DNA from: Bacilli bacterium
GTDB taxonomy: Bacteria > Bacillota_I > Bacilli_A > RFN20 > CAG-826
Direction of reading: 5' to 3'
Length of the DNA stretch: 64,000 nt
Assembly (NCBI GenBank): GCA_036649855.1
Contig: JAVWAV010000003.1
Span: forward strand, 10,286-74,285
The notes under the pieces were generated by a model. The model made no database searches. It was not told the origin of the DNA and was given only the letters and a program-made list of their open reading frames with translations. Both the position numbers and the translations under genes were made by a program. Positions 12,423 to 31,446 of the stretch are shown here, one piece after another (the first letter of the stretch is position 1; every line of letters begins with the position of its first letter).

Positions 12423-13493
12423 TTATTTACTTGCTGCTCTATTATATCTATCTTGAAAACTCTTTTCAATTGAAGATGCTGTATTTACTTTTTGAGCATC
12501 TGTCATTTTAGCGAATTTTGAATAGACAGTTTTAGAGTCCTTTGTTGTTACTGTGGTTTCCTCAGAAATTTCATCTGCGTCTAAGAGTTCACCACCACAA
12601 TCTTCTGTTTCTGTTGCAACTTCTTCAGTGATATCTTCATCACCAACAACCTCTTCTTCAGTTTTCACTTCTATTGGTTGTTCTGGAGCAACTTCTTCTT
12701 TAACTGCTGGTTCCTCGTCTGCCTCTTTAACAGTCAACATGTCGATAACTTGCATTAATAGTGTTTTAATTTCTGCTAATGTAGGTTCTTCATCTTGTTC
12801 TGCTACAGGAGCATCTTCAGATGCTTGAGGAATGTCTTCTTTAACTTCAACATCTTCAGGAATTTCTTCCACTTCAAAGATATCTTCGTCAAATAATCTT
12901 ACTTTTTTCTTTGACATTTTTGTTCCTCCTAACTTATTGATCTTTTCTGCACTATCTCTTATGGTAGCACATCCTGCTCGACCATCTTCTACCAATGCCA
13001 AATGATTTCCACGAATTTTAGTCATATAGTATTTGCCACCCTTATCAACAATTACAGTGTCATATCCTAATGATAATTCTCGTTTGTCACCTGATAGAAT
13101 TTCTTCAATGGTGTCTGCATCTGTTACAACAAGATCACAAATCAAACAATCTTTCGTGTTATCATCTTCACCTCGTCTAACATTATACATGTATCCCTTA
13201 GCAAGATCTTTGTAGTTAACTAGAGATACATTTTCTTGAGGATGGTCATCAACAAATGGTTTGTTCTCAAACGATGCAATTGATGTTGGATCAAATACTT
13301 CGTCGTCAGTCCTGAAGACTTTAACTATTTTATTTCTGTCGCCACCCTCAATTATTTCGCTTTCCAAGTAATCATAAATACCTGTTCTCGCTATAATACA
13401 ATCACGACAAATAAGTTGACCATTACTATCTTTCCATATTCTGTCAGATATTTTAATACCATATGTCGTTCTTGTGCTATCTAATAATCGCAT
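12423..13493 (-). CDS. prohead protease/scaffold protein (DUF2213-like) with acidic C-terminal half
   Basis: The N-terminal half (..ELSLGYD..IRGNHLALVEDGRAGCATIRDS) resembles the DUF2213 family. The C-terminal half is E/D/V-rich. Confidence 0.6.
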   Translation of the reverse strand: MRLLDSTRTTYGIKISDRIWKDSNGQLICRDCIIARTGIYDYLESEIIEGGDRNKIVKVFRTDDEVFDPTSIASFENKPFVDDHPQENVSLVNYKDLAKGYMYNVRRGEDDNTKDCLICDLVVTDADTIEEILSGDKRELSLGYDTVIVDKGGKYYMTKIRGNHLALVEDGRAGCATIRDSAEKINKLGGTKMSKKKVRLFDEDIFEVEEIPEDVEVKEDIPQASEDAPVAEQDEEPTLAEIKTLLMQVIDMLTVKEADEEPAVKEEVAPEQPIEVKTEEEVVGDEDITEEVATETEDCGGELLDADEISEETTVTTKDSKTVYSKFAKMTDAQKVNTASSIEKSFQDRYNRAASK

Positions 13494-14261: not shown

Positions 14262-15230
14262 TTATCCCAACAATTTTATTAATTCTGTCTCGTCGGAAAT
14301 AAATAATTTTCCATATTGTTTAAGAAATGCTGTTTTGGTATATGTTGCTATTCTTCCAGATTGAATATTCACAAGTTCTTTTCCGTTCTTTGATTTAGTA
14401 TTTATAATTAAATCTTCCGCAACTCTTACTGGAAAATGAATATCATCTAGATCAAAAATTGCAAGAGGAATACATCTACAATTTGGAAATTCTCCACAAT
14501 GTCCATGCATACTAGATACACTTCCCTGTTGTGTTGTATAATTAAATGTTACAGCATCATTCCAAAATACTAAAACATTATCTAACATTTGATGAGAGTC
14601 TCTCACTCTTGCATCTCCACTAGTTGACCACATATATGCTTTCACTCCAACTGATCTGGATCTTACTTCTGTGATTGCCGTATTTACTTTTGCACTTTCA
14701 GTTCTTACAATTAGTTTTGCTCTGTTTCCAAGTCTTTCATATAACTCACTTTCAATTTCTGTTCCCCTGAATGCTTTTCCTTCCATATATCCTTTACGGA
14801 GAAGTTTATATACATCCTTAGGTAAATTTTTTATTAATGACATATTATATTCAAACTTATCTAATAATGGATCTACAAGTTTTTGTGATTTTATTAGATT
14901 TGTCATTGCTTTATTAAATTTTTTATTATCTTCTTTCTTCTTTTTTAATTGATCTAACCCTGATGTAACTGCTTTAATTATTTCAGTAAATCCTTCATTG
15001 TTTCGTTTCAATACTTTACTTCTAAGACTTTTTATATATTTCGATAATTCTTTTGTATTTATGTTTTCAATTATTTCATCAACTTCATTAATAGTCATAG
15101 CATTTCTTATTTTTTTACCAATACTATTTTTTACATCAGAAATAAACATGTTTACAAATACATCTTCTGCTGAAGATTTTAATTTCATCTTTTTTCTCAA
15201 TTTCTTTTCTTGACTTTTGGTTAGTTTCAT
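14262..15230 (-). CDS. head morphogenesis protein, MuF/SPP1 gp7 family
   Basis: Motif GDARVRDSHQMLDN...FPNCRCIPL. The start is moved to the ATG at 15230 (MKLTKSQ), which has a terminator, TATAAT and RBS just upstream. Confidence 0.8.
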   Translation of the reverse strand: MKLTKSQEKKLRKKMKLKSSAEDVFVNMFISDVKNSIGKKIRNAMTINEVDEIIENINTKELSKYIKSLRSKVLKRNNEGFTEIIKAVTSGLDQLKKKKEDNKKFNKAMTNLIKSQKLVDPLLDKFEYNMSLIKNLPKDVYKLLRKGYMEGKAFRGTEIESELYERLGNRAKLIVRTESAKVNTAITEVRSRSVGVKAYMWSTSGDARVRDSHQMLDNVLVFWNDAVTFNYTTQQGSVSSMHGHCGEFPNCRCIPLAIFDLDDIHFPVRVAEDLIINTKSKNGKELVNIQSGRIATYTKTAFLKQYGKLFISDETELIKLLG

Positions 15231-15261
15231 TAAATAAAGTCTCCTATCATAATTTATTATA

Positions 15262-15297
15262 CAAAAATTCCTCTCGTTTTTTACAGTGAGAGGAATT
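15262..15297 (-). terminator. rho-independent terminator
   Basis: 10-bp stem AATTCCTCTC/GAGAGGAATT followed by TTTT on the minus strand, then a TATAAT-like box. Confidence 0.6.
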
Positions 15298-15301
15298 TTG
15301 A

Positions 15302-16891
15302 TCATTTTAATATATTTATAACTTTTTGTTTTAATTCTTCGATATCTTTTGAATACACCTTTTCATGAACTTCTTGTTTTTTAAGGTCTACATTAGGATT
15401 TTCATGTCTTCCTGTTAAAGTTTTATCGATAAATCCATAATAATTGTATTTACTTCCCAATGTTACAACAGTTGTAAAATACCAAATTCTATCCCATGGT
15501 TTATAAAAATATGTTATATTTTCTCCATTCCAATTTCTTATCTTTGAAACAAGTTCGTCAACTGAATTTACTTTAATACTTTCATCATGTAATTCTTCTC
15601 TGGATTCTTTCATTTCTTCAAAATCTTGTTCTATTCCATTCTGAATTGAATTTAATGTTTCTTTTGAAAATACTGATTTGTCTTCTATTTCAACATAATA
15701 TTTATATCCATTGGTGTTATACTGATATTTATTTTTAACTAACCAATCTTCAAATTTTTCTGCATCATTGGTATTTCTAAATGTAAATCCTATATATCCC
15801 TGAGAATCTTTATTTTCAGAACCATTACAATTCTTTGCAACATTTCTAAGTTCTATTGGATCGAAGTCTTTAACTATTTTATTAGTAGTTTCTTTTATAA
15901 TTTCTCCATCGTATCCAAGTCCTCTATTATTTTTCAATAAATATTCTGCTCTTTCTTTTGTTAGATTATCAACTTTGAAATCACCTGTCGTTCCATGCAT
16001 TATATATGTCCAATTATTTTCTTCACTAGAATCTTTTATTGTTTGTTTTGTCTTAGATAGTAATTCTCTTAATGCTTGTATACCTTTTTCTGCTGTATCT
16101 GCTGTTCTAGAACCTATTCTAGTAAACTTGCCGTCTCTAAATACAATATTACATTCAATAATATACCAACCTTGTTTTACATTATCAAAATCTGGTTCGA
16201 AGTTTAGATTGATATGAATTTTAGCAAGTTCTGATTTTCCTGTTGAACTATTAATGTAAGTTGACTGTTTTAACGGAGTTTCGAATTCGACAAATACTGC
16301 TTTATCACTTCTATTTTTATCAATATTTCTCATTAATTCTGAACATTTAACAAGAATTTCATCTCTGCTTGCAAGATTGTCGTTTATGTCCTTATCATTT
16401 ACCACTATCTTCCAAACTTTCATCACTCCTAGATTTCCTCTATTATTTTTATAGATTTCATCTGAACCTGACATATCATAAAAATTATCTAAGTTATTAA
16501 CATAATTGTCTAATTGACTTCTACTTGAAAATTTCTTTGTTTCTAACAATGCTCCAGATTTATTATATATCTTTGCAACTAATACAGGTTCTAAATCTTT
16601 TACTTTTGTATCTATTATACCTGTTGAATCTGCTCCAAAATAATTTTCAAGAACACTCTTTAATTTATTCTTAGATCCTCTCAATACTAATTGATATTCA
16701 TTCCCTACTTTTTCTGCTACTGCACTTACTCCATATGCTCTTGCTTCTGCTATATCTTGTTTCAACATCTTATCGTCTTTCGAAGGATATCCTCCTAAAA
16801 TGTAGTGAGCATCTTTAACTTTGGTAACTGCATCAATAAACGATATTGAGTCAACAATAAATACTTTGTTTTTATAACTTACCTTAAACAT
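15302..16891 (-). CDS. head-module protein of unknown function carrying the N-terminal shared module
   Basis: The N-terminus MFKVSYKNKVFIVDSISFIDAVTKVKDA matches the module seen in five other ORFs. Confidence 0.6.
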   Translation of the reverse strand: MFKVSYKNKVFIVDSISFIDAVTKVKDAHYILGGYPSKDDKMLKQDIAEARAYGVSAVAEKVGNEYQLVLRGSKNKLKSVLENYFGADSTGIIDTKVKDLEPVLVAKIYNKSGALLETKKFSSRSQLDNYVNNLDNFYDMSGSDEIYKNNRGNLGVMKVWKIVVNDKDINDNLASRDEILVKCSELMRNIDKNRSDKAVFVEFETPLKQSTYINSSTGKSELAKIHINLNFEPDFDNVKQGWYIIECNIVFRDGKFTRIGSRTADTAEKGIQALRELLSKTKQTIKDSSEENNWTYIMHGTTGDFKVDNLTKERAEYLLKNNRGLGYDGEIIKETTNKIVKDFDPIELRNVAKNCNGSENKDSQGYIGFTFRNTNDAEKFEDWLVKNKYQYNTNGYKYYVEIEDKSVFSKETLNSIQNGIEQDFEEMKESREELHDESIKVNSVDELVSKIRNWNGENITYFYKPWDRIWYFTTVVTLGSKYNYYGFIDKTLTGRHENPNVDLKKQEVHEKVYSKDIEELKQKVINILK

Positions 16892-16895
16892 TAAT

Positions 16896-17495
16896 TTATT
16901 CTCCTATATCGAATATTTCTGGATGATCCTTTGCGAATTTCTTTGCTAATAAAACTGTTGCTGCACATAATTGAACGCATTCTACAAATGTGTTCTTTGT
17001 AGGAGTTTTTCCCTCAAATTCATCATTTATTTCATGAACAATTTCACCCAATTCTTCTGTTAAAACTGCTACCCATCTATCATAAGTATTATTTACTGTT
17101 TCTGGATGTGCTTTTGTAACGATTCTCTTTATTTCCTCAAGAATTGCATTAAAGATGTCAGAAACAGTAATAATATTATCATTATCTGAGTCAACTGCTT
17201 TTACATACTGTTTATCAAAAAATTGATTTAACTTTGTTTCTGCATCCTCTTGAGAAGTTGCAATTACATTGTATTTTTTACCGTCTTTTTTAATCTTAAA
17301 CTTACGATATTTTATTTCTTTAGTATTTTGTTTAGGTTCGTCTAAATCGCTCTCTAAAGGTAAATCTAATGGTTTTTCAACCACTTCTGCAACTTCTTCT
17401 ACAGGAGTTTCTGTTTCTTCTAATTTAGTTTCTGACACATCTTCTTGTGTGTCTTTTACATCTTCTTTGAATACCTTTCTATCAAATATATTCAT
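16896..17495 (-). CDS. acidic N-terminus + shared module + MazG-like (all-alpha NTP pyrophosphohydrolase-like) C-terminal domain
   Basis: Module KYRKFKIKKDGKKYNVIATSQEDAETKLNQF. The C-terminal LTEELGEIVHEINDE resembles the MazG EExxE motif; the second acidic motif is degenerate. Confidence 0.4.
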   Translation of the reverse strand: MNIFDRKVFKEDVKDTQEDVSETKLEETETPVEEVAEVVEKPLDLPLESDLDEPKQNTKEIKYRKFKIKKDGKKYNVIATSQEDAETKLNQFFDKQYVKAVDSDNDNIITVSDIFNAILEEIKRIVTKAHPETVNNTYDRWVAVLTEELGEIVHEINDEFEGKTPTKNTFVECVQLCAATVLLAKKFAKDHPEIFDIGE

Positions 17496-17511
17496 TATTA
17501 TTTATATCCTC

Positions 17512-18984
17512 CTATTTGATTATGTTTCTAACTTTATTTTCAGCATCTTGTTTAGATGTTGCCTTAACTATAAACTTTCTATCTCCTACTTTAACATTGT
17601 AGTTCTTAACAGTTTTTACTCTGTCATATTCAGAAATATTTAATGTTGAAGTTGATGTTATTGTTGCATCTGATAACATTTTTTCTAATTTTTCTAGTGG
17701 TAAGATAAGATTTGTTGTTCCGTTGTCAAGTGAAAGTGTAACATCGCCTTTCTTAATTTTAACAACAGTTAATTGTGCATTACCATACTTTTCTTCCCAT
17801 CTTAGTTTACTTCCTAAAACTACTTTCCCAATATCGTTTACAGAGTCTGAGTCTTTTATTGCTGAGTCTCTGACTGATATTCCCATTTCTTTAAGTGCTT
17901 TTCTTCCTGCTGAAGTAATATGGTCGTCATCAACATCGTATTTATCATACCAACTTGAGATTTCTCCTGAATTTGTTGTAATCCTTAATAAGTCCCATAT
18001 AAGTCTTGTCTCAAGAACTTTATATCCACCTTTGGATTTTAATTGACTCACATAATCATTAATTTTATCCTTCCCAAGTTTATTGAATTTTTCACTGACA
18101 ACTTTATTTAAATCTTCTGATTTATAGTCTCTTATCGCTGAGTCGTTAACATTCCAAATTATTTTTCCATTCTTGTAAATCAATTTAGGATTTGTAAAGT
18201 ATTCAAAAACACTGTCTTTAGCGTCTTTATCTGAAGTGACATTCATTTGTTTTACATCACCCTCTTCAGACTCTATCTCATAAGTACTGTCTTTAACATT
18301 AGATGGACTTGCTGTTGCTTTATCATCTACATATAAATAATTATTATGAGGATATTGATGGAAAGTAGGACCAATCTTTTGTCCTTCTTTTGCAAGTTCT
18401 TCAAGTGAACCAATAGTTACAGATGGAGTAATTAAAAATTTCCATTTTCCATTCTCTTGTCCTGCATATTGAAGTCCTTTCTCTCTTGCCTTTGCAATAA
18501 ATTCTTTAATTTGAGGATACTGTATTGTATCTTCTACTTTCTTTGAATCTGTTGTTGCTGTTGCCATTTTATTCACTCCTCCTAACATATCTAATCCTTT
18601 ATTTAATATGTTCTCTAAAATTCCATCATTCTCTTTAATATCACATACAGAGCATAAAGGATCATTTACTGTTGCATTGTTTGCAGGAATAACATCAGAA
18701 TCTTCTGTATTATTCTTTGCAAGTGTATTATCAGATTCTATTGCTCCTGTTGTCGTAGTTTTGAATATTGAATTTAATATATCAATATGTTCTATTTCAT
18801 CATTTCGTATTCTTTCGAGTTTAGATCTATCTTCTTCAGATAGATCTGCTCTCTTTAATGCTTTATCATAACCATCAATTGCTTCTATTTCATCTGAAAT
18901 TAAAAATCCAAGATCATCTCTCTTTTCAGTAATTTGAGGAGTTTCTTCCTTACCTGTTTCTAAAACTTTTTCGTCTTTTAACAT
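17512..18984 (-). CDS. head-module protein with N-terminal encapsulated-ferritin-like domain and C-terminal shared module
   Basis: aa 25-75, LISDEIEAIDGYDKAL..IRNDEIEHIDIL, resemble the EncFtn/rubrerythrin-like ExxEA...EExEH pattern. The C-terminus is YNVKVGDRKFIVKATSKQDAENKVRNIIK. Confidence 0.5.
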   Translation of the reverse strand: MLKDEKVLETGKEETPQITEKRDDLGFLISDEIEAIDGYDKALKRADLSEEDRSKLERIRNDEIEHIDILNSIFKTTTTGAIESDNTLAKNNTEDSDVIPANNATVNDPLCSVCDIKENDGILENILNKGLDMLGGVNKMATATTDSKKVEDTIQYPQIKEFIAKAREKGLQYAGQENGKWKFLITPSVTIGSLEELAKEGQKIGPTFHQYPHNNYLYVDDKATASPSNVKDSTYEIESEEGDVKQMNVTSDKDAKDSVFEYFTNPKLIYKNGKIIWNVNDSAIRDYKSEDLNKVVSEKFNKLGKDKINDYVSQLKSKGGYKVLETRLIWDLLRITTNSGEISSWYDKYDVDDDHITSAGRKALKEMGISVRDSAIKDSDSVNDIGKVVLGSKLRWEEKYGNAQLTVVKIKKGDVTLSLDNGTTNLILPLEKLEKMLSDATITSTSTLNISEYDRVKTVKNYNVKVGDRKFIVKATSKQDAENKVRNIIK

Positions 18985-18996
18985 TTAGTAATCTCC

Positions 18997-19569
18997 TTAT
19001 TTCTTTCCAAATTTAAATACTGGACTATTCTGAACATCGTTAACTATCTTTACATCTTCAATTTTTGCTGTATTTGTTTTCACTTGCTTTACTTTTGCAT
19101 GTTTCTTTACATTATGCTTTCTATTCTTTATATTTAGTATAACTTCAATAAATTCGAATATAAATGACAATGCTGTAAATAAAGAAATAACAAACATGTA
19201 TATAATTACTTTAGAACTTCCAATAGTTACAAGTTCTACTGGATTAAATACTGTAATAAATATATAAGTTATTGCAGCAATAATTAATGATACTGTCAAT
19301 AATCTAATTAATGATTTCATGATAGGATGTTTACACTCTGCATTTGTATATCTCTTATAATTATTTATTGCAAATATAAATGTTAATAGTGCAACAATCT
19401 CGACTGCTGCAGTTATTAGTATTCCCTTCAATCCTACAGTATTATAAAGATTTACTGCAGTTAATTCAAGTGAACCTCCAAATACTGCTAATACTTGTAT
19501 TCCTGTATACGCCAATAAAATTGCCATTGTTGAATACATTATTCCTCTGAATATATTAAGTTTTTTCAT
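18997..19569 (-). CDS. multi-pass membrane protein
   Basis: Four to five hydrophobic helices and a basic C-terminal tail. Confidence 0.6.
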   Translation of the reverse strand: MKKLNIFRGIMYSTMAILLAYTGIQVLAVFGGSLELTAVNLYNTVGLKGILITAAVEIVALLTFIFAINNYKRYTNAECKHPIMKSLIRLLTVSLIIAAITYIFITVFNPVELVTIGSSKVIIYMFVISLFTALSFIFEFIEVILNIKNRKHNVKKHAKVKQVKTNTAKIEDVKIVNDVQNSPVFKFGKK

Positions 19570-19585
19570 TTTCTAATTCCTCCTA

Positions 19586-20677
19586 TTAATTTTGTGTCCA
19601 TTGTGCATACAATGTTGTATCTGCTGTAACTGTTATTGTTTCTTCAGGATTATAATCTGTTCCTGTTCCATCAGCAAGAGTATTCCATTTACTAAATGTA
19701 TATCCCTCTATTAAAAATGCGTTTGTTGCAACTGATGTAGAATAACCACTTCCTAAAACTACGCTTGACATTGTTCCTGTTGCAGTTGTTCCTTGTGGAG
19801 CATTAGAATCATATGTCAATGTTCTAGCATCTACACTTGTTGCAGTTACTGCAATATTTGCATTAGCATTCGAGGTTATTTGAATTGTATCAGATTCTAA
19901 TCCCACATTTGTGGTATCATCACCTATTGTAACTGCATCTATACATTTTCCTTGAATTGCAGTTAGTATTACATTTACTGTTGCACCTTTAGAGATAACA
20001 TCAGTTCCTGGTGTTATTGTATTGCCTGCCCCATCTGTAAATCTCACTGTAACTGTTTCGTCTTCGTTAATATAAGAAATATTATACTTAGAAACATCAA
20101 CTGCTGTTATAGAAATGTCCTCTGTTGTGTGGTCTTCATACGCGATAGTTCTTGAAATTGTTGTTCCGATAGCATCTTCTGCAGCAACCCACCATGCTAT
20201 ATCTCCTGCTTCACCACCTAAATTAGTTGCTTCATCAACATCTGCTTGTGTCAATGGAGTTCCTTCCCATTTCATTCCAATAATTGATTTAAAATTTGTA
20301 TGAATAAGCATACATACATATTTTTTAGTTAATCCAGTTGCTGGAGATGTTAATGTATTCAATTTATCTAAATCTACATGGATAGTACAAGCATTACCTA
20401 CTTGTGTAACAGTCTTAATATTACTTTGGTTTGCTAAGAATTTCTCTAGTATTTCTGGTGTTATTGATGTGTCAGTATATTCTGTTGACTTTTCAAATAT
20501 GAAATCAGAATCTGTAAACTTTTGAAATTCTCTACCCATCCTTGCTAAAACTCTACAAAACTCTATAGGTGCTTTTATTGCAAATCCATCTGCATCTTCT
20601 TGTATTATTTTAAATTCACCACCCATTCTGTCTAATATTCTTGCATATTCTTTTGGAACTTTAATTAAATTATCCAT
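19586..20677 (-). CDS. virion surface/decoration-like protein with C-terminal Listeria-Bacteroides repeat (Flg_new) domain
   Basis: The C-terminus GYTFSKWNTLADGTGTDYNPEETITVTADTTLYAQW is the Flg_new signature. There is an N-terminal tandem repeat VPKEYARILDRMGGEF / APIEFCRVLARMGREF. Confidence 0.55.
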   Translation of the reverse strand: MDNLIKVPKEYARILDRMGGEFKIIQEDADGFAIKAPIEFCRVLARMGREFQKFTDSDFIFEKSTEYTDTSITPEILEKFLANQSNIKTVTQVGNACTIHVDLDKLNTLTSPATGLTKKYVCMLIHTNFKSIIGMKWEGTPLTQADVDEATNLGGEAGDIAWWVAAEDAIGTTISRTIAYEDHTTEDISITAVDVSKYNISYINEDETVTVRFTDGAGNTITPGTDVISKGATVNVILTAIQGKCIDAVTIGDDTTNVGLESDTIQITSNANANIAVTATSVDARTLTYDSNAPQGTTATGTMSSVVLGSGYSTSVATNAFLIEGYTFSKWNTLADGTGTDYNPEETITVTADTTLYAQWTQN

Positions 20678-20720
20678 CTATATTGTCCTCCTTATTAATT
20701 ATAACTTAATAATTTACATA

Positions 20721-22394
20721 TTATTTTCTTTTCTTCGAGTCTCTTAGTGCTGCTCTAATTATATTTTCTTTAATCTCGTTGTAATCGTCCTGTTTTATCT
20801 CTTTCTTTATAGGTTTGACAGTGGTTTCTATTTCTTCTGGTTGTTGTTCGAATTCCTCATTAAAGTCCTCTGTAAGACTGTTTTCGTCCTCTCCTGGACT
20901 CTCTGCTGCTAATTTATCTGCTTGTTTTGCTTTATCTTCATCTAACTTAGATATTTTAGTTCCAAATCCTGTTTTCTTTACTGCTGATTGAATTTCTTGT
21001 AATGCTGTTTCATGTGTTATTAATTCATTATCTAATAATGTTGATATATTATTTACTAAATTTGTTAAATAACTTTGTCTGTTTTCATCTGTATCATCAA
21101 GCATACTTACAAATTCGTAAGATAAATCTTGAGGAACTTCTAATCCACAACATTTAAATATTACAGGGAGTAATTTATCTAAAACAGGTCTAATTTCTTC
21201 ATCCTGCTTGCCTTGAATGTTATTGTCATATATTTTTAATTCAATAGGTTTATCTCCATTAAGTCCTGCTCTATTTGTTCCAAATAATATTACTTCTGGC
21301 ATTTCTGCTGCACCTGAAACAATATCCTTTTGACCTGTTAAGATATCTGACAATCCACTGAATGAATATTCTTGTTTTTCGTATTCATCTTGCTTATCCA
21401 TAAATACTAATTTATTTGAAGTTCTATAATTATTTAATGCTGCCATTTGTGCTGCAAACATTTGAGATGATTGAGGATTTCCAGCACTTAATCCACTCAT
21501 AGTATTTCGCATTCCGTCTAATTTTACAATTTCTAGTAATGCTTTATTTAATAAGGATGCTATTGCATTTTTAGTATTCTCATGATTCATTAAATCTTGC
21601 AAAACATGCTCTAATTCACTTATTCCCCAACCTTGTAATCTTTGTTCTGTAATTCTAGGAGATTTTCTATTTGTAAATCTCAATACTCTTGAATAATGAA
21701 CTTTTTGTGCTGAGTCTTCTGTTCCATCTATAAAAAATGAATAATATTTTGGTAATCCAAATTCTGCACTTCTATAGTCTGTTACAACTTCACTTGACCA
21801 ACTTAATCCATACCACCTATCTGTTGTTAAGAAATTAATCTTAGAACCTGCCTTTATGTTTTTAAGTTTCAATGGTTTAGACAAATCTTCTTCTCCGTCA
21901 TCAACCATTATCAAAGATGCTGCTCCACCGAATATTCTTGCTTGTTTTGTAGCATATATTAATCTACTCTTTAATCTGTTATATAATGTGTAAATCTTAG
22001 TTAAGTCTGCATCAACTAGCGAGTCACAATTAATATCTATACCATTTGACCACATATCTCTTGCTGGAATATCTACTATTTTTCTAAATACCCAACAACC
22101 ATTATATATCGCCATTAATTCATTTCTTCTAAATGTTATAAGATCATTATCGAAATATGCTCCATTAAGCATAACATTAGATACACCTGTTTGCATTTCT
22201 GGATTATTAAATGAGCCATCTTTAATTCTTCTTGATCCAAATCCTTCTTGAACTGCAGAATCAAATAATCTTGCTTTTTCTCCTATACTTTTAGAATCCT
22301 GAGAAGAACCTATAAATGCAGATACTCCAACATTATCGTTATTTGACTTAAAACTTCCATCTATAAATGATTGTAATGTTGTATCATAATTCAT
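20721..22394 (-). CDS. portal protein (DUF1073-like)
   Basis: 557 aa with an acidic C-terminus; the N-terminal region is typical of DUF1073 portals. Confidence 0.75.
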   Translation of the reverse strand: MNYDTTLQSFIDGSFKSNNDNVGVSAFIGSSQDSKSIGEKARLFDSAVQEGFGSRRIKDGSFNNPEMQTGVSNVMLNGAYFDNDLITFRRNELMAIYNGCWVFRKIVDIPARDMWSNGIDINCDSLVDADLTKIYTLYNRLKSRLIYATKQARIFGGAASLIMVDDGEEDLSKPLKLKNIKAGSKINFLTTDRWYGLSWSSEVVTDYRSAEFGLPKYYSFFIDGTEDSAQKVHYSRVLRFTNRKSPRITEQRLQGWGISELEHVLQDLMNHENTKNAIASLLNKALLEIVKLDGMRNTMSGLSAGNPQSSQMFAAQMAALNNYRTSNKLVFMDKQDEYEKQEYSFSGLSDILTGQKDIVSGAAEMPEVILFGTNRAGLNGDKPIELKIYDNNIQGKQDEEIRPVLDKLLPVIFKCCGLEVPQDLSYEFVSMLDDTDENRQSYLTNLVNNISTLLDNELITHETALQEIQSAVKKTGFGTKISKLDEDKAKQADKLAAESPGEDENSLTEDFNEEFEQQPEEIETTVKPIKKEIKQDDYNEIKENIIRAALRDSKKRK

Positions 22395-22402
22395 TTATTG
22401 TT

Positions 22403-22741
22403 CTACCTCCTATTTGTTATGTCTGAATTCCTTTTTGCTATACTAGTAATTTCTGAACCTATACCAATTAAATCTGCTCCAATGACTCCTAATGTCTTTA
22501 GAGAACTTTCTAAAACAGAAGGATTTCTTGAAGTTTGTAACATTTTCTTTTGCTCAAGAATGTTTAATGCTATCCCTCCAAGAATTCCTGCTAAATCTCC
22601 CACTCCATCTTGAATATCACTTTCAAATATAGAATCTTTATTCTCTAGATATACTTTTAATTTTGCTATTGCTGCATCTTCACATTCTGCTCTTACTTTA
22701 TAACATTTTTCTTTATATTTTACTTTATAAAAACTATACAT
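22403..22741 (-). CDS. small protein with N-terminal shared module and G-rich hydrophobic C-terminal half
   Basis: Start placed at the ATG at 22741 (MYSFYKVKYKEKCYKVRAECEDAAIAKLK), directly after the stop of the upstream small ORF. Confidence 0.55.
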   Translation of the reverse strand: MYSFYKVKYKEKCYKVRAECEDAAIAKLKVYLENKDSIFESDIQDGVGDLAGILGGIALNILEQKKMLQTSRNPSVLESSLKTLGVIGADLIGIGSEITSIAKRNSDITNRR

Positions 22742-22742
22742 A

Positions 22743-22904
22743 TTATTCTCCAATCTTTCCACTTTCTGTAGTGATTGAGGTGATAGCAACTTTAGTAGCA
22801 GGAATTTCTATTTCAGTTATCGCATTTGATAACTCGATACTTTCTGTAGATGTTGTTATACCTGCTACTTTCATTTTTGCTATTCTGAATTCTGGATTAA
22901 TCAT
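22743..22904 (-). CDS. hypothetical small protein (53 aa, below the ORF-track cutoff)
   Basis: AGGAGG RBS, then ATG at 22904 (MINPEFRIAKMKVAGITT...); fills the gap after the sheath-like gene. Confidence 0.45.
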   Translation of the reverse strand: MINPEFRIAKMKVAGITTSTESIELSNAITEIEIPATKVAITSITTESGKIGE

Positions 22905-22915
22905 TTATAATCCTC

Positions 22916-24094
22916 CTATCTTACTTCACCTGTAATCTCGACAACTCTTGCACCATCTTGTGTTTCTAGTATAACATAAATAGGAGTAAATTTTCTTGCC
23001 TGTTTATCTGCTACTGAAATATTTGATACTGGAACAGAGAATACATAAAATCCTTGTGGCAATGTTTCTCCTGACTTAATTACATTATATTTTACACCAT
23101 TATATGTGATTGACAAGTCTTCTCCACTATACTGTGCTACAAGATTTAAATATCCATTAGTTTTATATCTTTGTAATTGACTATTTATTGCTGCCTTAAT
23201 GTTACTGATTCCTTGTTCTGTCAAGTATTGTTTTCCTAACATCCTTTGTAGCACTGAATATGTTATATCTCTTTCAACTGCGATTGCACCGAAATCTGTA
23301 TGAATTGATATATTTTCTATTGTTGCTAGGTTTCCACCTAGGTTTACAACTTGACTTCCTACTGAGTCAATTAAGTTATAATATCCTTCATCATTTGGAT
23401 TATTTACTAAATTATTAAAGACTGATTGTGTTACATCTTCAGAAGCACTATCTTCTGTTATACCTGTTAAATTTTCACTTGTGAAAGCATAATCTTTAAT
23501 TGTATCCGTTCCATCCAAATTTATTTGTGAAAAATATGCACCAACTAATAGTGCTGCATCAATTAACACTGTATTATATGTTTTTGTGCAATATTTTATT
23601 ATTGCCATTGCATCTGTCATACTATTATCTTCCAAAAATGTTGTTGAATTTGTAGTCAACAGTAATCTTACTTTTTCTGGAGATGTTGTCTCATTACAAT
23701 ATTCTGAAATTGATTGTAAAACTTCTGATGTATAACCTGATACTCCAATTAATTGATTAGAAATTGCAACATAAATAAAATCATCTGATATATTTCTACA
23801 CTCTCCTATAAGAGTTGTAAAAGAAGCAAGAGTGTATGTTTGAGGACTAACTACAAGTAATTTAGAACCTCCGTTGTAAAAATAATTTTTCATACTTACA
23901 ACTGCTGCATCATTTCCAGATACTTGTGTATCAATTTGTGCTACATCTGTAATTAACAATTTTGAAACAGATGCTGCTGATTCATCCACCAAAGTTACTG
24001 GTGCAAAGTATACTGTTGTTTCAAAGTCTCCTAAAACTTTTCCAGAACTCTTAATATCAAAATCAACTGTTACTATATTTCTTACTGATATCAT
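22916..24094 (-). CDS. tail sheath-like protein (DUF3383-like)
   Basis: 392 aa, with N- and C-terminal beta-rich ends resembling small sheath proteins. It is paired with a 146-aa tube-like gene. Confidence 0.5.
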   Translation of the reverse strand: MISVRNIVTVDFDIKSSGKVLGDFETTVYFAPVTLVDESAASVSKLLITDVAQIDTQVSGNDAAVVSMKNYFYNGGSKLLVVSPQTYTLASFTTLIGECRNISDDFIYVAISNQLIGVSGYTSEVLQSISEYCNETTSPEKVRLLLTTNSTTFLEDNSMTDAMAIIKYCTKTYNTVLIDAALLVGAYFSQINLDGTDTIKDYAFTSENLTGITEDSASEDVTQSVFNNLVNNPNDEGYYNLIDSVGSQVVNLGGNLATIENISIHTDFGAIAVERDITYSVLQRMLGKQYLTEQGISNIKAAINSQLQRYKTNGYLNLVAQYSGEDLSITYNGVKYNVIKSGETLPQGFYVFSVPVSNISVADKQARKFTPIYVILETQDGARVVEITGEVR

Positions 24095-24108
24095 TTTCTA
24101 TATTCCTC

Positions 24109-24549
24109 CTATACATTCTTCTCTTCTGAGATAATTTCACCTGAAACAAATTCAAATTCTCTTGTTCCTGCTGTCTCACCTACAGTATTTGCTGGAATTC
24201 TTACTGGTAGACATCCATTACATGTTGCTGCAATATTTCCAAGTGAATCTGTTATTGTGATTTTGGATAATGCCAATGATGGATTTGCCCTTGCCCACAA
24301 ACAAAATTCAGTAAGTTCTGCAATATGAAAAGATGTTTGCTTAAATAATACTTTTACTTTTCCTTGTTTTGAACCATTGAAGTTTCCAACATATCCACCA
24401 TCTGGAGAAGAATCCATTGAATACATATCCTTTTCGTATTCATACCCTACTGAACCTAGTAACTTTCCTGCTCCTCCAATTGTAATCATTGGATGATTGT
24501 CGTTCTCGATTACTACTGTTACTGTGGTTAAACTAAATACTTTTGCCAT
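24109..24549 (-). CDS. tail tube-like protein (DUF3277-like)
   Basis: 146 aa, adjacent to the sheath-like gene. Confidence 0.45.
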   Translation of the reverse strand: MAKVFSLTTVTVVIENDNHPMITIGGAGKLLGSVGYEYEKDMYSMDSSPDGGYVGNFNGSKQGKVKVLFKQTSFHIAELTEFCLWARANPSLALSKITITDSLGNIAATCNGCLPVRIPANTVGETAGTREFEFVSGEIISEEKNV

Positions 24550-24562
24550 TTTAATATTCCTC

Positions 24563-25276
24563 CTACATCTTTATAGAATTAAATTCTTTTTCTGCCTCTT
24601 GAACATACTTGCTTATTGCATTTGTATACTGAGGTAAACCTGCTACTGATTTCTTTCTTTCCGATAAAAGTCTTTTAAAATCTTCTGCTAATCTTTCTGC
24701 TCTACTTTTATCACCTTTTGATAACGAGTCTTTTATCCAACGAATATAATCAAATAAATCTTCTATACCTATTGCGATAATGTTTGTTCCTGGAACTGCT
24801 ATGTCTATTCCATAATCTTTTATTGCTGAATCATGTATACCTAATTTTCTTTTCATATCTAATATGAGACCATACATTCCTGCTATAGCAGTAGAACTCT
24901 TCACTTCATCATAATGTTGTTCAAAGAATTTAATTGCTTCTTGAAGTTCTTTTTCATTTCTTGCTGCTCTCATTTTATTTCTAATATCATCAGCAATGTT
25001 ATCATTTATTGCTGAATCATTATATGATTGTGCAAATTTTTCATATTCACCTTTATTGTATAGAACTTTTTCTAATGGAATACCTGTCTTCTTGCAATAT
25101 TCATCGATTGCCTTCCATTTCTTTTCTCCCATCTCTCTTCTTATGTCATCAAATTCTGACATGATTGAATCTGCAAGTTTTCTTGTTTTCGCATTCTTTA
25201 ATTTCTTAACTGCTTCTACTTCTGAACTAGCATCTACAAGAAATAATTTATTTTCTGACTTTACTTTATATTTCAT
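24563..25276 (-). CDS. head-module protein of unknown function with N-terminal shared module
   Basis: N-terminus MKYKVKSENKLFLVDASSEVEAVKKLKNA; contains a DSAIKD motif. Confidence 0.6.
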   Translation of the reverse strand: MKYKVKSENKLFLVDASSEVEAVKKLKNAKTRKLADSIMSEFDDIRREMGEKKWKAIDEYCKKTGIPLEKVLYNKGEYEKFAQSYNDSAINDNIADDIRNKMRAARNEKELQEAIKFFEQHYDEVKSSTAIAGMYGLILDMKRKLGIHDSAIKDYGIDIAVPGTNIIAIGIEDLFDYIRWIKDSLSKGDKSRAERLAEDFKRLLSERKKSVAGLPQYTNAISKYVQEAEKEFNSIKM

Positions 25277-25282
25277 TTTGTT

Positions 25283-25612
25283 TTATATCTCCTTATCAAT
25301 TTTTACCATACTTCCTATTAATTTAGATTGTTCTACTCCTGTGGTAACTAGTGACTCTATTATTTTATGTGTTCTATTGTATGCACTATCCCAATCTAAA
25401 TCTTTTGAAAATCTTCTAATTTCTGAAACATTTTTCTCTAATTCTTTAGATAATTTTAACAAAGAATTTATAGCATTGTTTACTATTTCTGTATTTATAT
25501 CATTTGGTAATTGTCCAAATTTATGTCTAGCAATACTTGCTGCATTTTCTAAATTCAATGCTTCAATTACTTCAATTGTTCCATCTGCCTTTGTTACTCT
25601 AAATTTCTTCAT
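25283..25612 (-). CDS. small protein with N-terminal shared module
   Basis: MKKFRVTKADGTIEVIEALNLENAASIARHKF. The start is moved to the ATG at 25612, which has GGAG 8 nt upstream. Confidence 0.55.
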   Translation of the reverse strand: MKKFRVTKADGTIEVIEALNLENAASIARHKFGQLPNDINTEIVNNAINSLLKLSKELEKNVSEIRRFSKDLDWDSAYNRTHKIIESLVTTGVEQSKLIGSMVKIDKEI

Positions 25613-25630
25613 TATATTCTCCAAATTATT

Positions 25631-25849
25631 TTATTCTGCTTCAACATCTTGAATTGTTTCTGTCTTCTCTTCTTTTTGAACTTTCTTTACATTTTTCTTT
25701 GATCTATATGCTTCTACATAATTATTAATCTTTTCTTTAAATAACATTGTATGAGCAATAATTAATGCAATTAGTTCTGTGCCAAGAGTGTATAGTGCCA
25801 ATAAAATGCAAATACCTCCTATAACACCTAATGTAATTAATAATGACAT
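25631..25849 (-). CDS. small two-helix membrane protein
   Basis: 72 aa, hydrophobic N-terminal 40 aa, charged tail. Confidence 0.55.
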   Translation of the reverse strand: MSLLITLGVIGGICILLALYTLGTELIALIIAHTMLFKEKINNYVEAYRSKKNVKKVQKEEKTETIQDVEAE

Positions 25850-25909: not shown

Positions 25910-28900
25910 TTAATACCATTGTTGTGAATATCCTTTAACATAAGTTACAACACATCTTAAACAACCTGCCATACCTTCGTCTAAGGTATTTGTTTGGTCT
26001 ACACCTCTCTCACGACTCTGTTCTGTAATTCTTAATTTAGCAATATCATTTATTGTTTGCTTACATTCTTTAGATACTTTTATTTTTTTCTTAAATAATC
26101 CTGTCTTCATTATATTTATCGATACATCTCTATCTCTTTCATCATATTTTATAACATTGTAAACATTTGTTAATAACATTGATAATCTATTTTGTGGAGA
26201 AGTATCTAGTATTGTGTTTCCTGGTAAAACTTCATTTCTGCTGAATTCTTCGAATGCCTGTATTCCTCTGAATACTCTTTCTCCTACTACAATAAATTCA
26301 TCTGTAAAATTATCTTGCATTATTTCTGTTACTTTTATTATCTCTCCAGATACTGTTGCTCCATAAATTAAGAAATTAGTTTTATTTATTTCTTCACTGC
26401 TTATAATATTTTGAGAACTGAATGCACCTGTATATACTCCGAGTTGTCTCTGAGTGAAATGATATATAACTAATTGTGCAAAAGCATCTGTAATATCATC
26501 ATGAGCAATTAATGGAAATTTCTTTAATTGCTGAATTAAATACATAACTTTATCTGTTCTAGCAAATCTAACTAATCCTTTTTCCATATATACTGATGCT
26601 AATTCTAGTCTCTGCATTTTACTTCGTGTTCCTGGATTAAATGCTACAAGTCCTGCAACATCCTTCGCTAAGTCCTGTATTAATGCTGATCCATTCGCTT
26701 TGTCTTCTACTACTTGAATTATTGAAGGATCTATAATTTGCATTCTTGTAAATAATTCTTTTTCAGCAACATATCCCAAGTGTTCTTCAAATGCGTCTGT
26801 TATTACTAATTCATTATCTTTACTATATGCTTCTGTAAATCCATGATAATCTGATGTTTCTTTATCTTTTACAGGACAGTCATGAGATGCATAATGGAAC
26901 TCTGCTAATGCTGTAAATTCTTCTAATTCTTTATCTTCGATATAATGTATCATATTTTCTTTGATAACATTTAATCTACTCTCTCCTGGATTTTGGTTAT
27001 ACTGTGTTTCAAAATCTTCAGATCCAATTTCCATCTTTAACTGAGTATAATCTCCAAATCTTTCTGCCCATAGTAAATCACCTTTCTTAATTTGCTTAAC
27101 CATTCCAGAACATGGATAAATAAATGTTTGATCATGACTCGCTACTGCTTGTATTTCAGTGTGACTGTAAATTAGTCGAAGTCCTTTATCCTCTGCAATT
27201 AAATCAGAAATATCACCATTTCCAATTCTTTGCATAATATGCCAAATTACACCTGTTGTCTTATTATTAAGACGAGATGGCATTGTTGTTTTGTAATAAT
27301 CTCTTGCATGTAATAATACTGCTCCATCCATTCTTGCATCTGCTACTGATATCAAATCATCGTTAATAATAATATCAGAACCAAATCCTGTAAACTTATC
27401 CATAGCAACTGAGTATGTCTTACCACCATTTCTTAATTCAAGACAATCTGCTGTATTCTTAGATAATCCAAGATTAATCTCATTTCCAAAATAATATTTA
27501 TATTTTTCGCTATTGAATAATTTCTGTTTCTTTATAATCATTTCTCCAGACAAGTTCTTACTGTGAGAAACAGATGTAACTGTAACTGGAGTATTTATAA
27601 TAGTCCATGATGGTCCTAAAATATTCATTATTGTTGAATTATGTGTCTGAATTAATGTTCTACCTGCTAGATACATTCCTCCCTCTACAGTTATACAGTT
27701 TCCTTCTTCTGGAATATCTAATTTATTTATTGATGTGATAGATATTCTTCTCTGTTTTGAAAAAATATTTAATTGTTTTCTTGGTATTCTACATGGTATT
27801 TCAAATGTAGGATTAAACCCAATATAATAACCGTCCTTTTTTGATATAATACCGTCCGCTTTTTGAATAGTTATTGAGGTCTTCCAACCAAATGATGCAA
27901 TCAGTGTTAAGATATCATCTTTTAATCTCTCGGAAGTAGTTATGAAGAAGTACCTGTGCTCATCTTTAATTAGACTGCCATCTGTGTCTATAAGTCCTGC
28001 CAACAAATCAAGTCTTTGTTCTACAGATGCTGTTAAGTACTCTTGAGGTATATGTTTTGTATCTTTATCTTTTGGAAAGCATAGACTTAATTTTTGTAAG
28101 TCTAGTCTCATAATTTTATCGAACTCATATTGAATACTTTTTCCCCACCCGCAGTCGTTTATCCATTTATTATGTATTCTATAATGTTTCTCTACTTCAT
28201 TTATTACTTCCATATCATCTATTCCAGCAGTGATTAATTGATGATTTGTGTTCCCATCTCCCAGCCATGCTCCTAGAACATATGGATTTACAGGTAAGAC
28301 TTTATCTTCCCCTAAAACTGCTGTTCTATTCTCCAAATGAAATCTATAACCATTTCCTCGAACATTTCCCATTTTTGGACTTATTCTTAATTTATTAACA
28401 AGATACTCTGTTTCTACTGTTTTTACTTTATTTGCAAAATTATCATGAACTTTCCACAAATGCTTTGAATTGCACTTAATCGTCTCGCCATTGCTGAATA
28501 CGACCTCTAAATCAGCAACATCTTTAGGATGAACTTTTATAACTTTCACAAATCTTCCGCCATCAGAAATTACCTCATCTCCTACAACTAAATCTCCATG
28601 ATTCTTCCACCCATTTCTTGTCAGAATTGGTGTATTATTTGCTAGGAGTTTCATATGCCGTGGTGCGATGTTCAAGTCGTGGTTACGAGTATGTGTTCCA
28701 TCTGGCAATAAATGATCTCTTACATCACAGTGTCCACCTGATTCTTTTTGTATCTTTTCATATTCTTCATCACTTATCCATTCTCCCCAAATATATTGAG
28801 GTAGAAAATGTTTAATAGAATATTGATAACATTCACATAAATATTGTATCAACCAACAATCACTAAATGGACTGGTCTCATAAGAATCCCACATCTCTTT

Positions 28901-28969
28901 TACAAATTCATATAGATTCTTTTTAATTAACCATGTCTTTAATAATTTAATATTTACTATTGTTGACAT
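25910..28969 (-). CDS. terminase large subunit interrupted by an intein
   Basis: Exteins carry ..IAPRHMK|..|STIMN (Walker A region), IIINDDLIS (Walker B) and C-terminal HDDITDAF (nuclease). The 337-aa insert has intein and LAGLIDADG blocks. Confidence 0.85.
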   Translation of the reverse strand: MSTIVNIKLLKTWLIKKNLYEFVKEMWDSYETSPFSDCWLIQYLCECYQYSIKHFLPQYIWGEWISDEEYEKIQKESGGHCDVRDHLLPDGTHTRNHDLNIAPRHMKLLANNTPILTRNGWKNHGDLVVGDEVISDGGRFVKVIKVHPKDVADLEVVFSNGETIKCNSKHLWKVHDNFANKVKTVETEYLVNKLRISPKMGNVRGNGYRFHLENRTAVLGEDKVLPVNPYVLGAWLGDGNTNHQLITAGIDDMEVINEVEKHYRIHNKWINDCGWGKSIQYEFDKIMRLDLQKLSLCFPKDKDTKHIPQEYLTASVEQRLDLLAGLIDTDGSLIKDEHRYFFITTSERLKDDILTLIASFGWKTSITIQKADGIISKKDGYYIGFNPTFEIPCRIPRKQLNIFSKQRRISITSINKLDIPEEGNCITVEGGMYLAGRTLIQTHNSTIMNILGPSWTIINTPVTVTSVSHSKNLSGEMIIKKQKLFNSEKYKYYFGNEINLGLSKNTADCLELRNGGKTYSVAMDKFTGFGSDIIINDDLISVADARMDGAVLLHARDYYKTTMPSRLNNKTTGVIWHIMQRIGNGDISDLIAEDKGLRLIYSHTEIQAVASHDQTFIYPCSGMVKQIKKGDLLWAERFGDYTQLKMEIGSEDFETQYNQNPGESRLNVIKENMIHYIEDKELEEFTALAEFHYASHDCPVKDKETSDYHGFTEAYSKDNELVITDAFEEHLGYVAEKELFTRMQIIDPSIIQVVEDKANGSALIQDLAKDVAGLVAFNPGTRSKMQRLELASVYMEKGLVRFARTDKVMYLIQQLKKFPLIAHDDITDAFAQLVIYHFTQRQLGVYTGAFSSQNIISSEEINKTNFLIYGATVSGEIIKVTEIMQDNFTDEFIVVGERVFRGIQAFEEFSRNEVLPGNTILDTSPQNRLSMLLTNVYNVIKYDERDRDVSINIMKTGLFKKKIKVSKECKQTINDIAKLRITEQSRERGVDQTNTLDEGMAGCLRCVVTYVKGYSQQWY
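27638..28648 (-). mobile_element. intein with LAGLIDADG homing endonuclease domain (class-3-like WCT pattern)
   Basis: Two LAGLIDADG motifs are present: LGAWLGDGN and LLAGLIDTDGS. The element ends ..LIQTHN|S. There is no Cys/Ser at position 1, but SKHLW, NCITV and QTHN are present. The N-junction is approximate. Confidence 0.75.
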
Positions 28970-30847: not shown

Positions 30848-31204
30848 TGGTGGACATGACGAGAGTCGAACTCGTGTCCATATCATGAATTTATTAGAAT
30901 ATTTTGCTACTATAATCTTTTAGACCGTCCATTTATGATGTTTGAGTGGACATTTCTTATTTACCTCGTCTCATCATAATTCGTTTTTAACTCTTGAATT
31001 ATAGAGTCTCTGATTTCTCAGAATAGTGCTTTATTTTAATCCTCAAATACTAAGCAGCACATTGACTGTATTGTTTTGGAGCAAGAGCATTAATTATTCT
31101 TGCAAATATATTTTGTTTTGCATTTATATTTAGTTGTAGTCTATTCCTACTGTCATATAGAATTCTAATAATTTCAATTGAAATGTCGATACCATTTCAT
31201 GCCC
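30848..31204 (-). ncRNA. ssrA: transfer-messenger RNA (tmRNA)
   Basis: The 5' GGGCATG pairs with the 3' CATGTCC-A-CCA, including G3:U70. GGTATCGAC matches the tmRNA GGAUUCGAC box. The 3' end reads GGAC-ACGAG-TTCGACT-CTCGT. A ~13-bp P2-like helix joins GAAATTATTAGAAT and ATTCTAATAAATTC. An internal frame ends ..GCT GCT TAG. Confidence 0.75.
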
Positions 31205-31371: not shown

Positions 31372-31446
31372 TGGTGGAACGATAGAGATTCGAACTCTAA
31401 CTTCTTGGATGCAAACCAAGTGTGCTACCATTGACACCATCACCCC
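31372..31446 (-). tRNA. tRNA-Ala (anticodon UGC)
   Basis: Full cloverleaf with encoded CCA. Anticodon loop TTTGCAT, T-loop TTCGAAT. The acceptor stem has the G3:U70 Ala identity pair plus G4:U69 and U5:G68. Confidence 0.85.

Follow-up and report, generated by a model that had tools for sequence, protein, structure and literature searches.

A basic strand-strand-helix mini-domain shared by six otherwise unrelated proteins of a phage head-gene block, and its possible role in docking accessory proteins

A stretch of 64,000 nucleotides from contig JAVWAV010000003.1 of a Bacilli bacterium assembly (the whole of which is called the window here) contains a phage head-gene block in which six proteins carry copies of one short module. 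This module is a real mini-domain of about 30 residues that was previously unnamed. It could act as a docking element that is used again and again, bringing accessory proteins into the procapsid through an acidic partner, a reading that is put forward tentatively, with a probability of about 0.45. The six peptide strings were all found on the minus strand, at the genes named in the initial annotation, and are listed below with the E values given by the independent hidden Markov model (HMM) described in the next paragraph.

25181..25276, minus strand, module copy, residues 1-32 of a 237-residue protein (gene 24563-25276), E 1.1e-9
17515..17607, minus strand, module copy, residues 460-490, the extreme C-terminus of a 490-residue protein (gene 17512-18984), E 1.1e-8
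16796..16891, minus strand, module copy, residues 1-32 of a 529-residue protein (gene 15302-16891), E 8.1e-7
17211..17312, minus strand, module copy, internal residues 62-95 of a 199-residue protein (gene 16896-17495), E 4.1e-6
22640..22738, minus strand, module copy, residues 2-34 of a 112-residue glycine-zipper protein (gene 22403-22741), E 2.4e-5
25514..25612, minus strand, divergent module copy, residues 1-33 of a 109-residue helical protein (gene 25283-25612), hhalign only

Leave-one-out HMMs were scored against the 840 six-frame open reading frames (ORFs) of the whole window and recovered four copies with E values from 5.5e-6 (the copy at 25181..25276) to 3e-4. The copy of the 22403 gene was found at E 0.07, yet it was the top non-training match, and the copy of the 25283 gene was missed (E 72). 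An independent HMM, constructed from 25 module instances taken from other phages only, recovered five copies (E 1.1e-9 to 2.4e-5), with no unrelated ORF of the window scoring better than E 1.2, and likewise missed the 25283 copy (E 49), in which the hairpin is longer by one residue. When the N-terminus of the 25283 family was compared with the module profile by hhalign, 30 columns were aligned with one gap (probability 78%, E 1.8e-5), and the score of 22.2 was higher than the maximum of 16.9 among 300 column-shuffled controls (mean 7.7, standard deviation 2.0), indicating that this is a divergent sixth copy. The similarity proposed from the letters alone was thus upheld for five copies by an independent profile, and for the sixth by profile-profile comparison only. 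No seventh copy was present in the 64-kb window.

The N-terminal placement of four of the copies was supported by ATG starts with GGAG-type ribosome-binding sites before them, the ATG of the 112-residue glycine-zipper protein being at 22741. The carriers had been described as otherwise unrelated, and after the modules were masked an all-against-all BLASTP comparison found nothing among the six proteins (best E 1.4). Pairwise nucleotide identities between the copies ranged from 0.40 to 0.59, indicating that they are old relatives at the protein level and not recent DNA repeats. The six carrier genes fall within 12 consecutive genes of the approximately 102 in the window (P about 1.5e-5), and their confinement to the head-gene block was observed in the window as well as in eight related phages.

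A beta-beta-alpha structure had been expected, and AlphaFold2 predicted a strand-strand-helix arrangement. For the 34-residue copy at 17211..17312, modelled with an alignment of eight sequences, the mean predicted local distance difference test (pLDDT) value was 91.7, with strands at residues 3-9 and 12-18 and a helix at residues 21-33; in the model of the 490-residue protein the module comprises strands 460-466 and 469-475 and helix 478-489, preceded by a low-confidence linker (447-458). Both models depict a predicted beta-hairpin of 7+7 residues packed on one helix. Across 43 instances, a small core is conserved (Y/F4, V/I6, Y/F13, V15, A17, A23 and L/V27) together with basic residues at K/R11 (95%), K26 (100%), and K5 and K7 (about 72-74%). 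The net charge of the modules was +2 to +6, as compared with -0.6 +/- 3.1 for 32-residue windows of the proteome.

The initial annotation did not recognise the module as a named family, and no Pfam, PHROGs, NCBIfam or PDB family matched it. When the six proteins and 27 isolated instances were scanned against Pfam, PHROGs and NCBIfam, no family reached or approached the threshold, and the PDB sequence profiles retrieved only idealised beta-alpha units (designed TIM barrels), PurS and the like, always with the second half of the module. The matching half is the strand/N-cap/helix stretch 'IVDA[DT]xxxEA'; it is a structural solution of a generic kind, and the matches do not indicate homology to any of these proteins. 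Foldseek searches of PDB and BFVD with the module yielded nothing below E 0.08; a few uncharacterised phage proteins of 33-66 residues in BFVD have a similar predicted fold (template modelling score 0.75-0.86).

Three families were considered and rejected. DUF1381 (PF07129) matched 3 of the 27 instances with 14-17 bits (best 17.3) against a gathering cut-off of 27.2 bits, and the match covers only positions 21-44 of the 44 of the model, so that only the second half of the module is aligned. DpnD/PcfM (PF14207) matched one of the 27 instances at E 0.15 and none of the six full proteins. Both families, DUF1381 being represented by 80alpha gp33, resemble the module in the strand-then-helix stretch 'V-x-A-x-S-x-E-E-A-x-x-K'; the DUF1381 members are small Staphylococcus phage proteins, and the gene of 80alpha gp33 is located among early/regulatory genes, not among head genes. 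The LysM model was matched by no module of the window, and the strand-strand-helix predicted by AlphaFold2 differs from the beta-alpha-alpha-beta of LysM. Three LysM proteins (P0005, P0042 and P0043) were retrieved by the module profile as false positives with no module-HMM domain in them, probably through a common 'Y-x-V-K-x-G-D' stretch.

A set of 1.84 billion representative proteins was searched with the module profile (E <= 1e-3), which resulted in 49 matches, or 46 carriers after removal of the three LysM false positives. The module occupies residues 1-32 in about half of the carriers (it starts at residue 1-2 in about 24 of the 46), the extreme C-terminus in about a third, and an internal position in the rest. 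Many carriers have two or three copies, in tandem in one of them (P0016). Almost no Pfam domains were detected in the carriers, and half of the 44 obtained from the exhaustive search (n = 22) showed similarity outside the module to genes of related head blocks.

Related loci were collected through portal homologues (portal +/-10 kb, portal identity 66-44%), to which two IMG/VR contigs at 75% were added. The eight related phages with portal identities of 75-45% carry 2-7 module copies per locus: all six positions are conserved in L002, and copies were counted in L006 (n = 5), L007 (n = 6), L008 (n = 3), L009 (n = 3), L011 (n = 2), L014 (n = 7) and L015 (n = 4), the last with a further divergent 25283-like copy below threshold. 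Every copy in these eight relatives lies on the portal strand, in the interval that runs from the terminase region to the scaffold gene. Only two related contigs were found in the IMG/VR scans, one 4-kb fragment in the JGI metagenomes and two fragments in a word-indexed protein search with the module profile, while the scan of GTDB genomes found no related contig and 120 portal homologues that were checked had no module copies. Neither the DNA nor the module was matched in cultured phages, whose portals reach 31% identity at most; the module is hosted by a clade of uncultured, AT-rich, contractile-tailed phages of about 90-100 kb. In the most distant locus (L010, portal identity 44%) only weak traces of the module were seen. 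Genes resembling ADP-ribosyl exotoxin, ADP-ribosylglycohydrolase and zeta-toxin genes are located there just upstream of MuF (L010:2272-6209); they carry no module and are of a kind typical of packaged effectors.

Comparison of homologues indicates that the module has been gained, lost or moved on the same cargo. Between the window and the relative with a 75% identical portal, the module is better conserved than the remainder of the protein in five of six orthologue pairs (for example, 41% vs 19% and 52% vs 27% identity). In the window, the glycine-zipper protein whose gene precedes the portal gene carries the module, which its L006 and L007 orthologues lack; eight of 14 ferritin-like homologues end in the module, and the other six have none and stop just short of the 'RDSAIKD...' of the window protein; and the MazG-like domain has the module upstream of it in four phages and downstream in L009. 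In L011, a 223-residue protein consists of a DUF2213 domain (52% identical to that of the window) followed directly by the module, whereas in other phages this domain is followed by an acidic region of 170-230 residues (aspartate plus glutamate 48-71 vs lysine plus arginine 19-30), so that the module stands in place of the acidic scaffold tail. A stand-alone 53-residue gene with little beyond the module was found immediately after the portal gene in L014 (L014:9388-9549).

The window has about 30% GC, nearly every gene is on the minus strand, and the head and packaging block, as delimited by Pfam and PHROGs matches, extends over 12.4-29 kb. The genes that bound or anchor the module cluster are the following:

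25910..28969, minus strand, large terminase with LAGLIDADG intein, boundary of the cluster (assigned mainly on position and size)
20721..22394, minus strand, portal protein (Pfam Phage_portal_3, E 7.9e-75)
14262..15305, minus strand, MuF-like head morphogenesis protein, boundary of the cluster (Phage_Mu_F, E 1.3e-11; PHROG 324, E 9e-33)
12423..13493, minus strand, DUF2213/Pa193_gp24-type protease/scaffold protein, candidate docking partner (Pfam, E 4.8e-44; PHROG 'head maturation protease', E 5.8e-50)

In the direction of transcription, the terminase is followed by a 72-residue membrane protein, the 109- and 237-residue module proteins, a tube-like (PF11681) and a sheath-like (DUF3383) protein, the 112-residue module protein just upstream of the portal, and the portal itself. 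A Flg_new-repeat protein and a polytopic membrane protein come next, then the 490-, 199- and 529-residue module proteins, the last directly upstream of MuF, and finally MuF, a sigma-like protein, the DUF2213/Pa193_gp24 protease/scaffold and a cement-like protein. The C-terminal half of the protease/scaffold protein (acidic region at 12423-12950) is strongly acidic (aspartate plus glutamate 48 vs lysine plus arginine 19).

Regions attached to the modules had been called EncFtn-like, MazG-like and glycine-rich, and two of them are located as follows:

18751..18939, minus strand, EncFtn-like two-helix ferritin domain, residues 16-78 of the 490-residue protein (PDB profile, AlphaFold2)
16899..17168, minus strand, MazG-like (all-alpha nucleoside triphosphate pyrophosphohydrolase-like) domain of the 199-residue protein (weak PDB profile matches at LTEELGE)

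The EncFtn-like assignment was supported by a profile of the two-helix domain made from eight phage proteins, which matched the EncFtn of P. furiosus (5n5e, E 4.1e-5) and an EncFtn-encapsulin fusion (2e0z, E 2.3e-4), and more weakly EncB, EncC and Rru_A0973. The di-iron ligands E, Y and ExxH are invariant (E10, Y17, E41 and H44 in alignment A10), and two long ferritin-domain helices were predicted by AlphaFold2 with a pLDDT of about 90; the cargo domain of the 490-residue protein therefore has the two helices and the ligand set of the EncFtn/EncB half-ferritins. The best NCBIfam scores were 19.6 bits for EncB_fam (E 7e-4, cut-off 90) and 18.4 bits for ferrit_encaps (cut-off 125), so the curated cut-offs for encapsulated ferritins were not reached. 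A Foldseek search with the 490-residue model did not retrieve EncFtn, the two-helix hairpin being too generic. The name 'ferritin-like domain-containing protein' is already given in NCBI to MEG1565337.1, which comes from the same sequences as the window. An EncFtn/EncB-like domain recurs in relatives (L008:4282-4602; L009:4878-6845, residues 260-340), once as a stand-alone gene of 106 residues, and a protein suspected to be a terminase (P0026) turned out to be another ferritin-like mosaic protein with the module. A true tailed phage thus has, among its head genes, one that encodes an EncFtn-like domain with intact ligands, and the encapsulin survey considered here (PMC8346489) mentions no cases of this kind in phages.

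The MazG-like label was suggested only by weak matches (YpjD 2gta, E 0.09; 5ie9, E 0.22), and in this protein the module copy is flanked by an acidic N-terminal tail and the putative MazG-like domain. The glycine-rich, glycine-zipper region of the 112-residue protein was plainly visible in its sequence (glycine-rich tail at 22403-22639, minus strand). A KOW/SH3-like beta-barrel was predicted for residues 390-445 of the 490-residue protein (17650-17815), before its C-terminal module (Foldseek probability 0.96-0.99, E 0.02-0.3).

A second recurrent element, the linker motif D-S-[AS]-[IV]-[KRN]-D, has four occurrences in the window, confined to two of the module proteins, against about 0.03 expected from rough residue frequencies:

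18127..18144, minus strand, DSAIRD, residues 281-286 of the 490-residue protein, in a low-pLDDT segment
17851..17868, minus strand, DSAIKD, residues 373-378 of the 490-residue protein; module-less homologues end just before it
25001..25018, minus strand, DSAIND in the 237-residue protein
24815..24832, minus strand, DSAIKD in the 237-residue protein

The motif occurs 28 times in the 22,274 residues of the carrier proteins, as well as in head-block accessory proteins of related loci (L002, L006, L011, L014 and L015). It was absent from the other portal homologues (120 checked), with one chance match in the portal of the window itself. AlphaFold2 places it in low-confidence linkers of the 490-residue protein, and it is located at junctions where homologues differ in domain content. 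It could be a prohead-protease site or a binding motif. The 'IRDSA' that ends the DUF2213 domain is not conserved in relatives and was therefore not connected with the DSAIKD motif. Another shuffled piece, [DE]D[RK]L[SA]PMTY[KS]KLKE[LM]GY, follows the module in several proteins of relatives and is absent from the window; pieces of this type were located at L006:6694-7485, L006:15109-15615, L007:19280-20587 and L002:9473-12412 (residues about 710-730).

Through shuffling, many fast-evolving accessory proteins encoded between the terminase and the scaffold have received the module at the N-terminus, at the C-terminus or in linkers; in the docking reading, the basic module would attach to an acidic partner and so hold its carriers in the assembling procapsid. 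The first partner would be the DUF2213 protease/scaffold protein, through its highly acidic C-terminal region, followed possibly by the packaged DNA. We infer that the cargo (the EncFtn-like ferritin domain, the MazG-like domain and the glycine-zipper protein) would be packaged in this way, and it could be ejected with the genome. Diverse fast-evolving cargo, head-block context, positional freedom, a basic surface and an acidic scaffold, taken together, are fitted best by a docking module. The diverse internal proteins of T4 have only the capsid-targeting sequence in common (PMC3012670), virions of Pa193 contain the products of unassigned genes adjoining the portal and gp24/scaffold genes (PMC11456595), and genes around MuF and portal commonly encode packaged effectors (PMC5512222). 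Three families are common to Pa193 and the phage of the window (PF11681, PF09979 and PF09950).

Several observations weigh against this reading. Local domain shuffling alone could cluster the carrier genes, and the loci of the relatives, being centred on the portal, say nothing on whether other parts of those genomes lack the module, a point that is tested by the window only. The basic charge is partly expected in an AT-rich genome with a lysine-rich proteome, and the V-x-A-[SDN]-x2-[ED]-A half of the module is a generic strand/N-cap/helix solution that is also seen in de novo TIM barrels. The 53-residue stand-alone gene and the similar folds of 33-66 residues in BFVD suggest that the module may be more than a tag, with a role in its own right.

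The initial annotation had proposed a capsid-targeting or ejection tag and had likened it to the capsid-targeting sequence (CTS) of T4 and to encapsulin cargo-loading peptides. A reusable recruitment module on diverse head-block cargo fits the data, whereas the analogy to a terminal tag was not supported, since the module is folded, occurs at any position, is often repeated, is also found stand-alone and has no adjoining conserved cleavage site. Like the module, the CTS (in IPI-III and Alt) is an element shared by diverse fast-evolving proteins that are encoded with head genes. The CTS comprises only about 10 residues, lies at the very start of the protein and is removed by the prohead protease, whereas the module is a folded domain of 30 residues that is independent of position, often repeated and sometimes stand-alone, and so not a short peptide of the extreme N-terminus. 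The CTS encapsidates internal proteins into the scaffolding core (PMC3012670).

The likeness to encapsulin cargo peptides consists in the EncFtn-like domain of one carrier and in the C-terminal position of the module in 8 of the 14 homologues, and both encapsulin and phage shells belong to the HK97 capsid lineage. Encapsulin targeting peptides are described as short, C-terminal and bound in a pocket of the shell protein, with a TVGSL-type motif on an N-terminal ferredoxin cargo (PMC8346489). By comparison, the module is a folded basic domain placed at either end or internally, and mostly N-terminally, in proteins of a DNA-packaging tailed phage, and no TVGSL-like motif was found in the module sequences. 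It is improbable that the folded basic mini-domain, possibly with the linker motif as a processing site or partner, forms a modular cargo-loading system that brings changing proteins, an encapsulated-ferritin-like enzyme among them, into a DNA-filled capsid. If it did, encapsulin loading would have an equivalent in phages, from which it might have evolved, and a compact tag would be at hand with which foreign proteins could be loaded into capsids. The presence of an EncFtn-like cargo in a phage head-gene cluster bears on the proposed viral origin of encapsulins.

Targeting to the inner capsid surface is also known from the HK97 protease, which is held there by a C-terminal capsid-targeting tail. 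In L011 the module takes exactly the position that a scaffold-like tail would have on the DUF2213 protein, which resembles the placement of scaffold coat-binding domains. It differs from them in being a hairpin plus helix and not a helix-turn-helix, and in occurring on many proteins and not on the scaffold/protease alone. The coat-binding helix-turn-helix of scaffolds (P22 gp8 and Pa193 gp24) is a small terminal element that holds its protein to the inside of the capsid by largely electrostatic contacts (PMC11456595). Polyvalent proteins associated with MuF or portal are variable, mosaic and multi-domain, and are predicted to be packaged and injected (Iyer et al. 2017, PMC5512222). The module carriers are likewise variable, mosaic and encoded beside portal and MuF in a phage of the portal-terminase type; they differ from polyvalent proteins in that the domains are spread over several separate proteins with a common mini-domain and are not fused to MuF, and a Pfam scan of the carriers revealed no named polyvalent or effector domains and hence no fused effectors.

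Other explanations of the module have to be weighed against docking. The conserved basic residues (K5, K7, K/R11 and K26) and the net charge of +2 to +6 would also suit a small nucleic-acid-binding unit, tethering its carriers to the packaged genome in the head or, once inside the cell, to nucleic acid of the host or the phage, with access to the capsid gained by other means. The stand-alone 53-residue version directly after the portal gene, the several copies within single proteins and the resemblance of the domain before the module in the 490-residue protein to KOW/SH3-like small barrels, which often bind nucleic acids, are in line with this explanation, and the internal proteins of T4 are basic. 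It largely overlaps with docking instead of excluding it, but it does not account for the L011 protein, in which the module stands in for the acidic scaffold tail, and no similarity to known DNA- or RNA-binding families was found; we hold it to be unlikely. The module may also be a homo- or hetero-oligomerisation unit. On its own, a strand-strand-helix of 30 residues would probably not be stable, and it may pair with another copy edge to edge, or bind D-S-[AS]-[IV]-K-D, and would then knit accessory proteins into a multivalent complex, as a non-covalent counterpart of the polyvalent proteins. Such pairing agrees with the two or three copies per protein, the tandem copies of P0016, the two to seven carriers per genome and the enrichment of DSAIKD-type motifs in low-confidence linkers of the same protein set; it is quite improbable, the 15302, 16896 and 22403 proteins having the module without the linker motif and several ferritin-like homologues the motif without the module.

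A cleavable N-terminal propeptide like that of T4, removed by the prohead protease after assembly, is very improbable: C-terminal, internal and repeated copies exist, the module is a folded domain of 30 residues and not a peptide of 10, no conserved motif directly follows the N-terminal copies, and three of the six carriers of the window have no DSAI motif at all. What speaks for it is that about 24 of the 46 carriers have the module from residue 1-2, that a protease-like DUF2213 protein is encoded nearby and that a DSAIKD-type motif is located about 12 residues upstream of the C-terminal module in P0013 and P0014. It is rather improbable that the role of the module is unrelated to the virion, the module being a generic folding/solubility or regulatory binding unit whose clustering reflects local recombination among neighbouring genes. 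All the carriers are indeed neighbours in a mosaic cluster, in which relatives differ in the order of the domains and further shuffled pieces (LSPMTYxKLKELGY, for example) are found repeatedly; a generic strand-to-helix arrangement makes up part of the pattern, and a weak, sub-threshold resemblance to small non-structural phage proteins (DUF1381, 80alpha gp33) was seen. However, from 75% to 45% portal identity the module stays in the same gene block with a changing cargo, is conserved better than that cargo, keeps its exposed basic residues at 95-100% and is attached to the protease/scaffold domain in L011. A chance or compositional artefact of a lysine-rich, AT-rich genome deserves almost no weight. 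A genome of 30% GC and the failure of the 25283 copy in the HMM tests are in its favour, but it is already refuted for five copies by the independent profile (E 1e-9 to 2e-5, next ORF at E 1.2), and the 46 true carriers among 1.84 billion proteins at E <= 1e-3 and the confident AlphaFold2 fold argue against it as well.

How accessory and internal proteins are selected for packaging is poorly understood outside T4 and a few model phages. A transferable, position-independent marker domain would provide a sequence handle for candidate packaged effectors in metagenomic phages, where nearly all the carriers are annotation-free 'dark matter', and docking offers a testable loading mechanism (basic module plus acidic scaffold or DNA) and a possible engineering tag. 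If the module were merely a shuffled structural unit, it would still represent a new domain family, together with a catalogue of a hypervariable head-cluster region.

Other features of the block were recorded. The large terminase of the window has 1019 residues with a LAGLIDADG-type intein/homing-endonuclease insertion, a feature noted at L015:3450-6506 too; the window gene gave a weak Pfam match to LAGLIDADG_3, together with Hom_end (E 8.3e-4) and Terminase_6C (E 2.8e-3), both below their cut-offs, and the terminases of relatives have 680-809 residues, some with a different intein signal. The tail-sheath-like (DUF3383/E217_gp31) and tube-like (PF11681) genes are located between terminase and portal (22916-24549, minus strand), an unusual order that is kept throughout the clade. 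Membrane and glycine-zipper proteins are encoded inside the head block (a single-pass protein of 72 residues at 25631-25849 and a polytopic one of 190 residues at 18997-19569, both on the minus strand, besides the 112-residue module protein) and could be ejection or channel proteins. A transfer-messenger RNA (tag AKQNIFARIINALAPKQYSQCAA) was predicted by ARAGORN beside tRNA-Ala and tRNA-Met (30848-31204, 31372-31446 and 31681-31755, minus strand); Rfam gave no transfer-messenger RNA at the gathering threshold and confirmed both tRNAs. The gene that separates MuF from the scaffold (13524-14171, minus strand) codes for a sigma-factor-like or helix-turn-helix protein, and a gene of this kind occupies the same position in L002, L006, L007 and L015.

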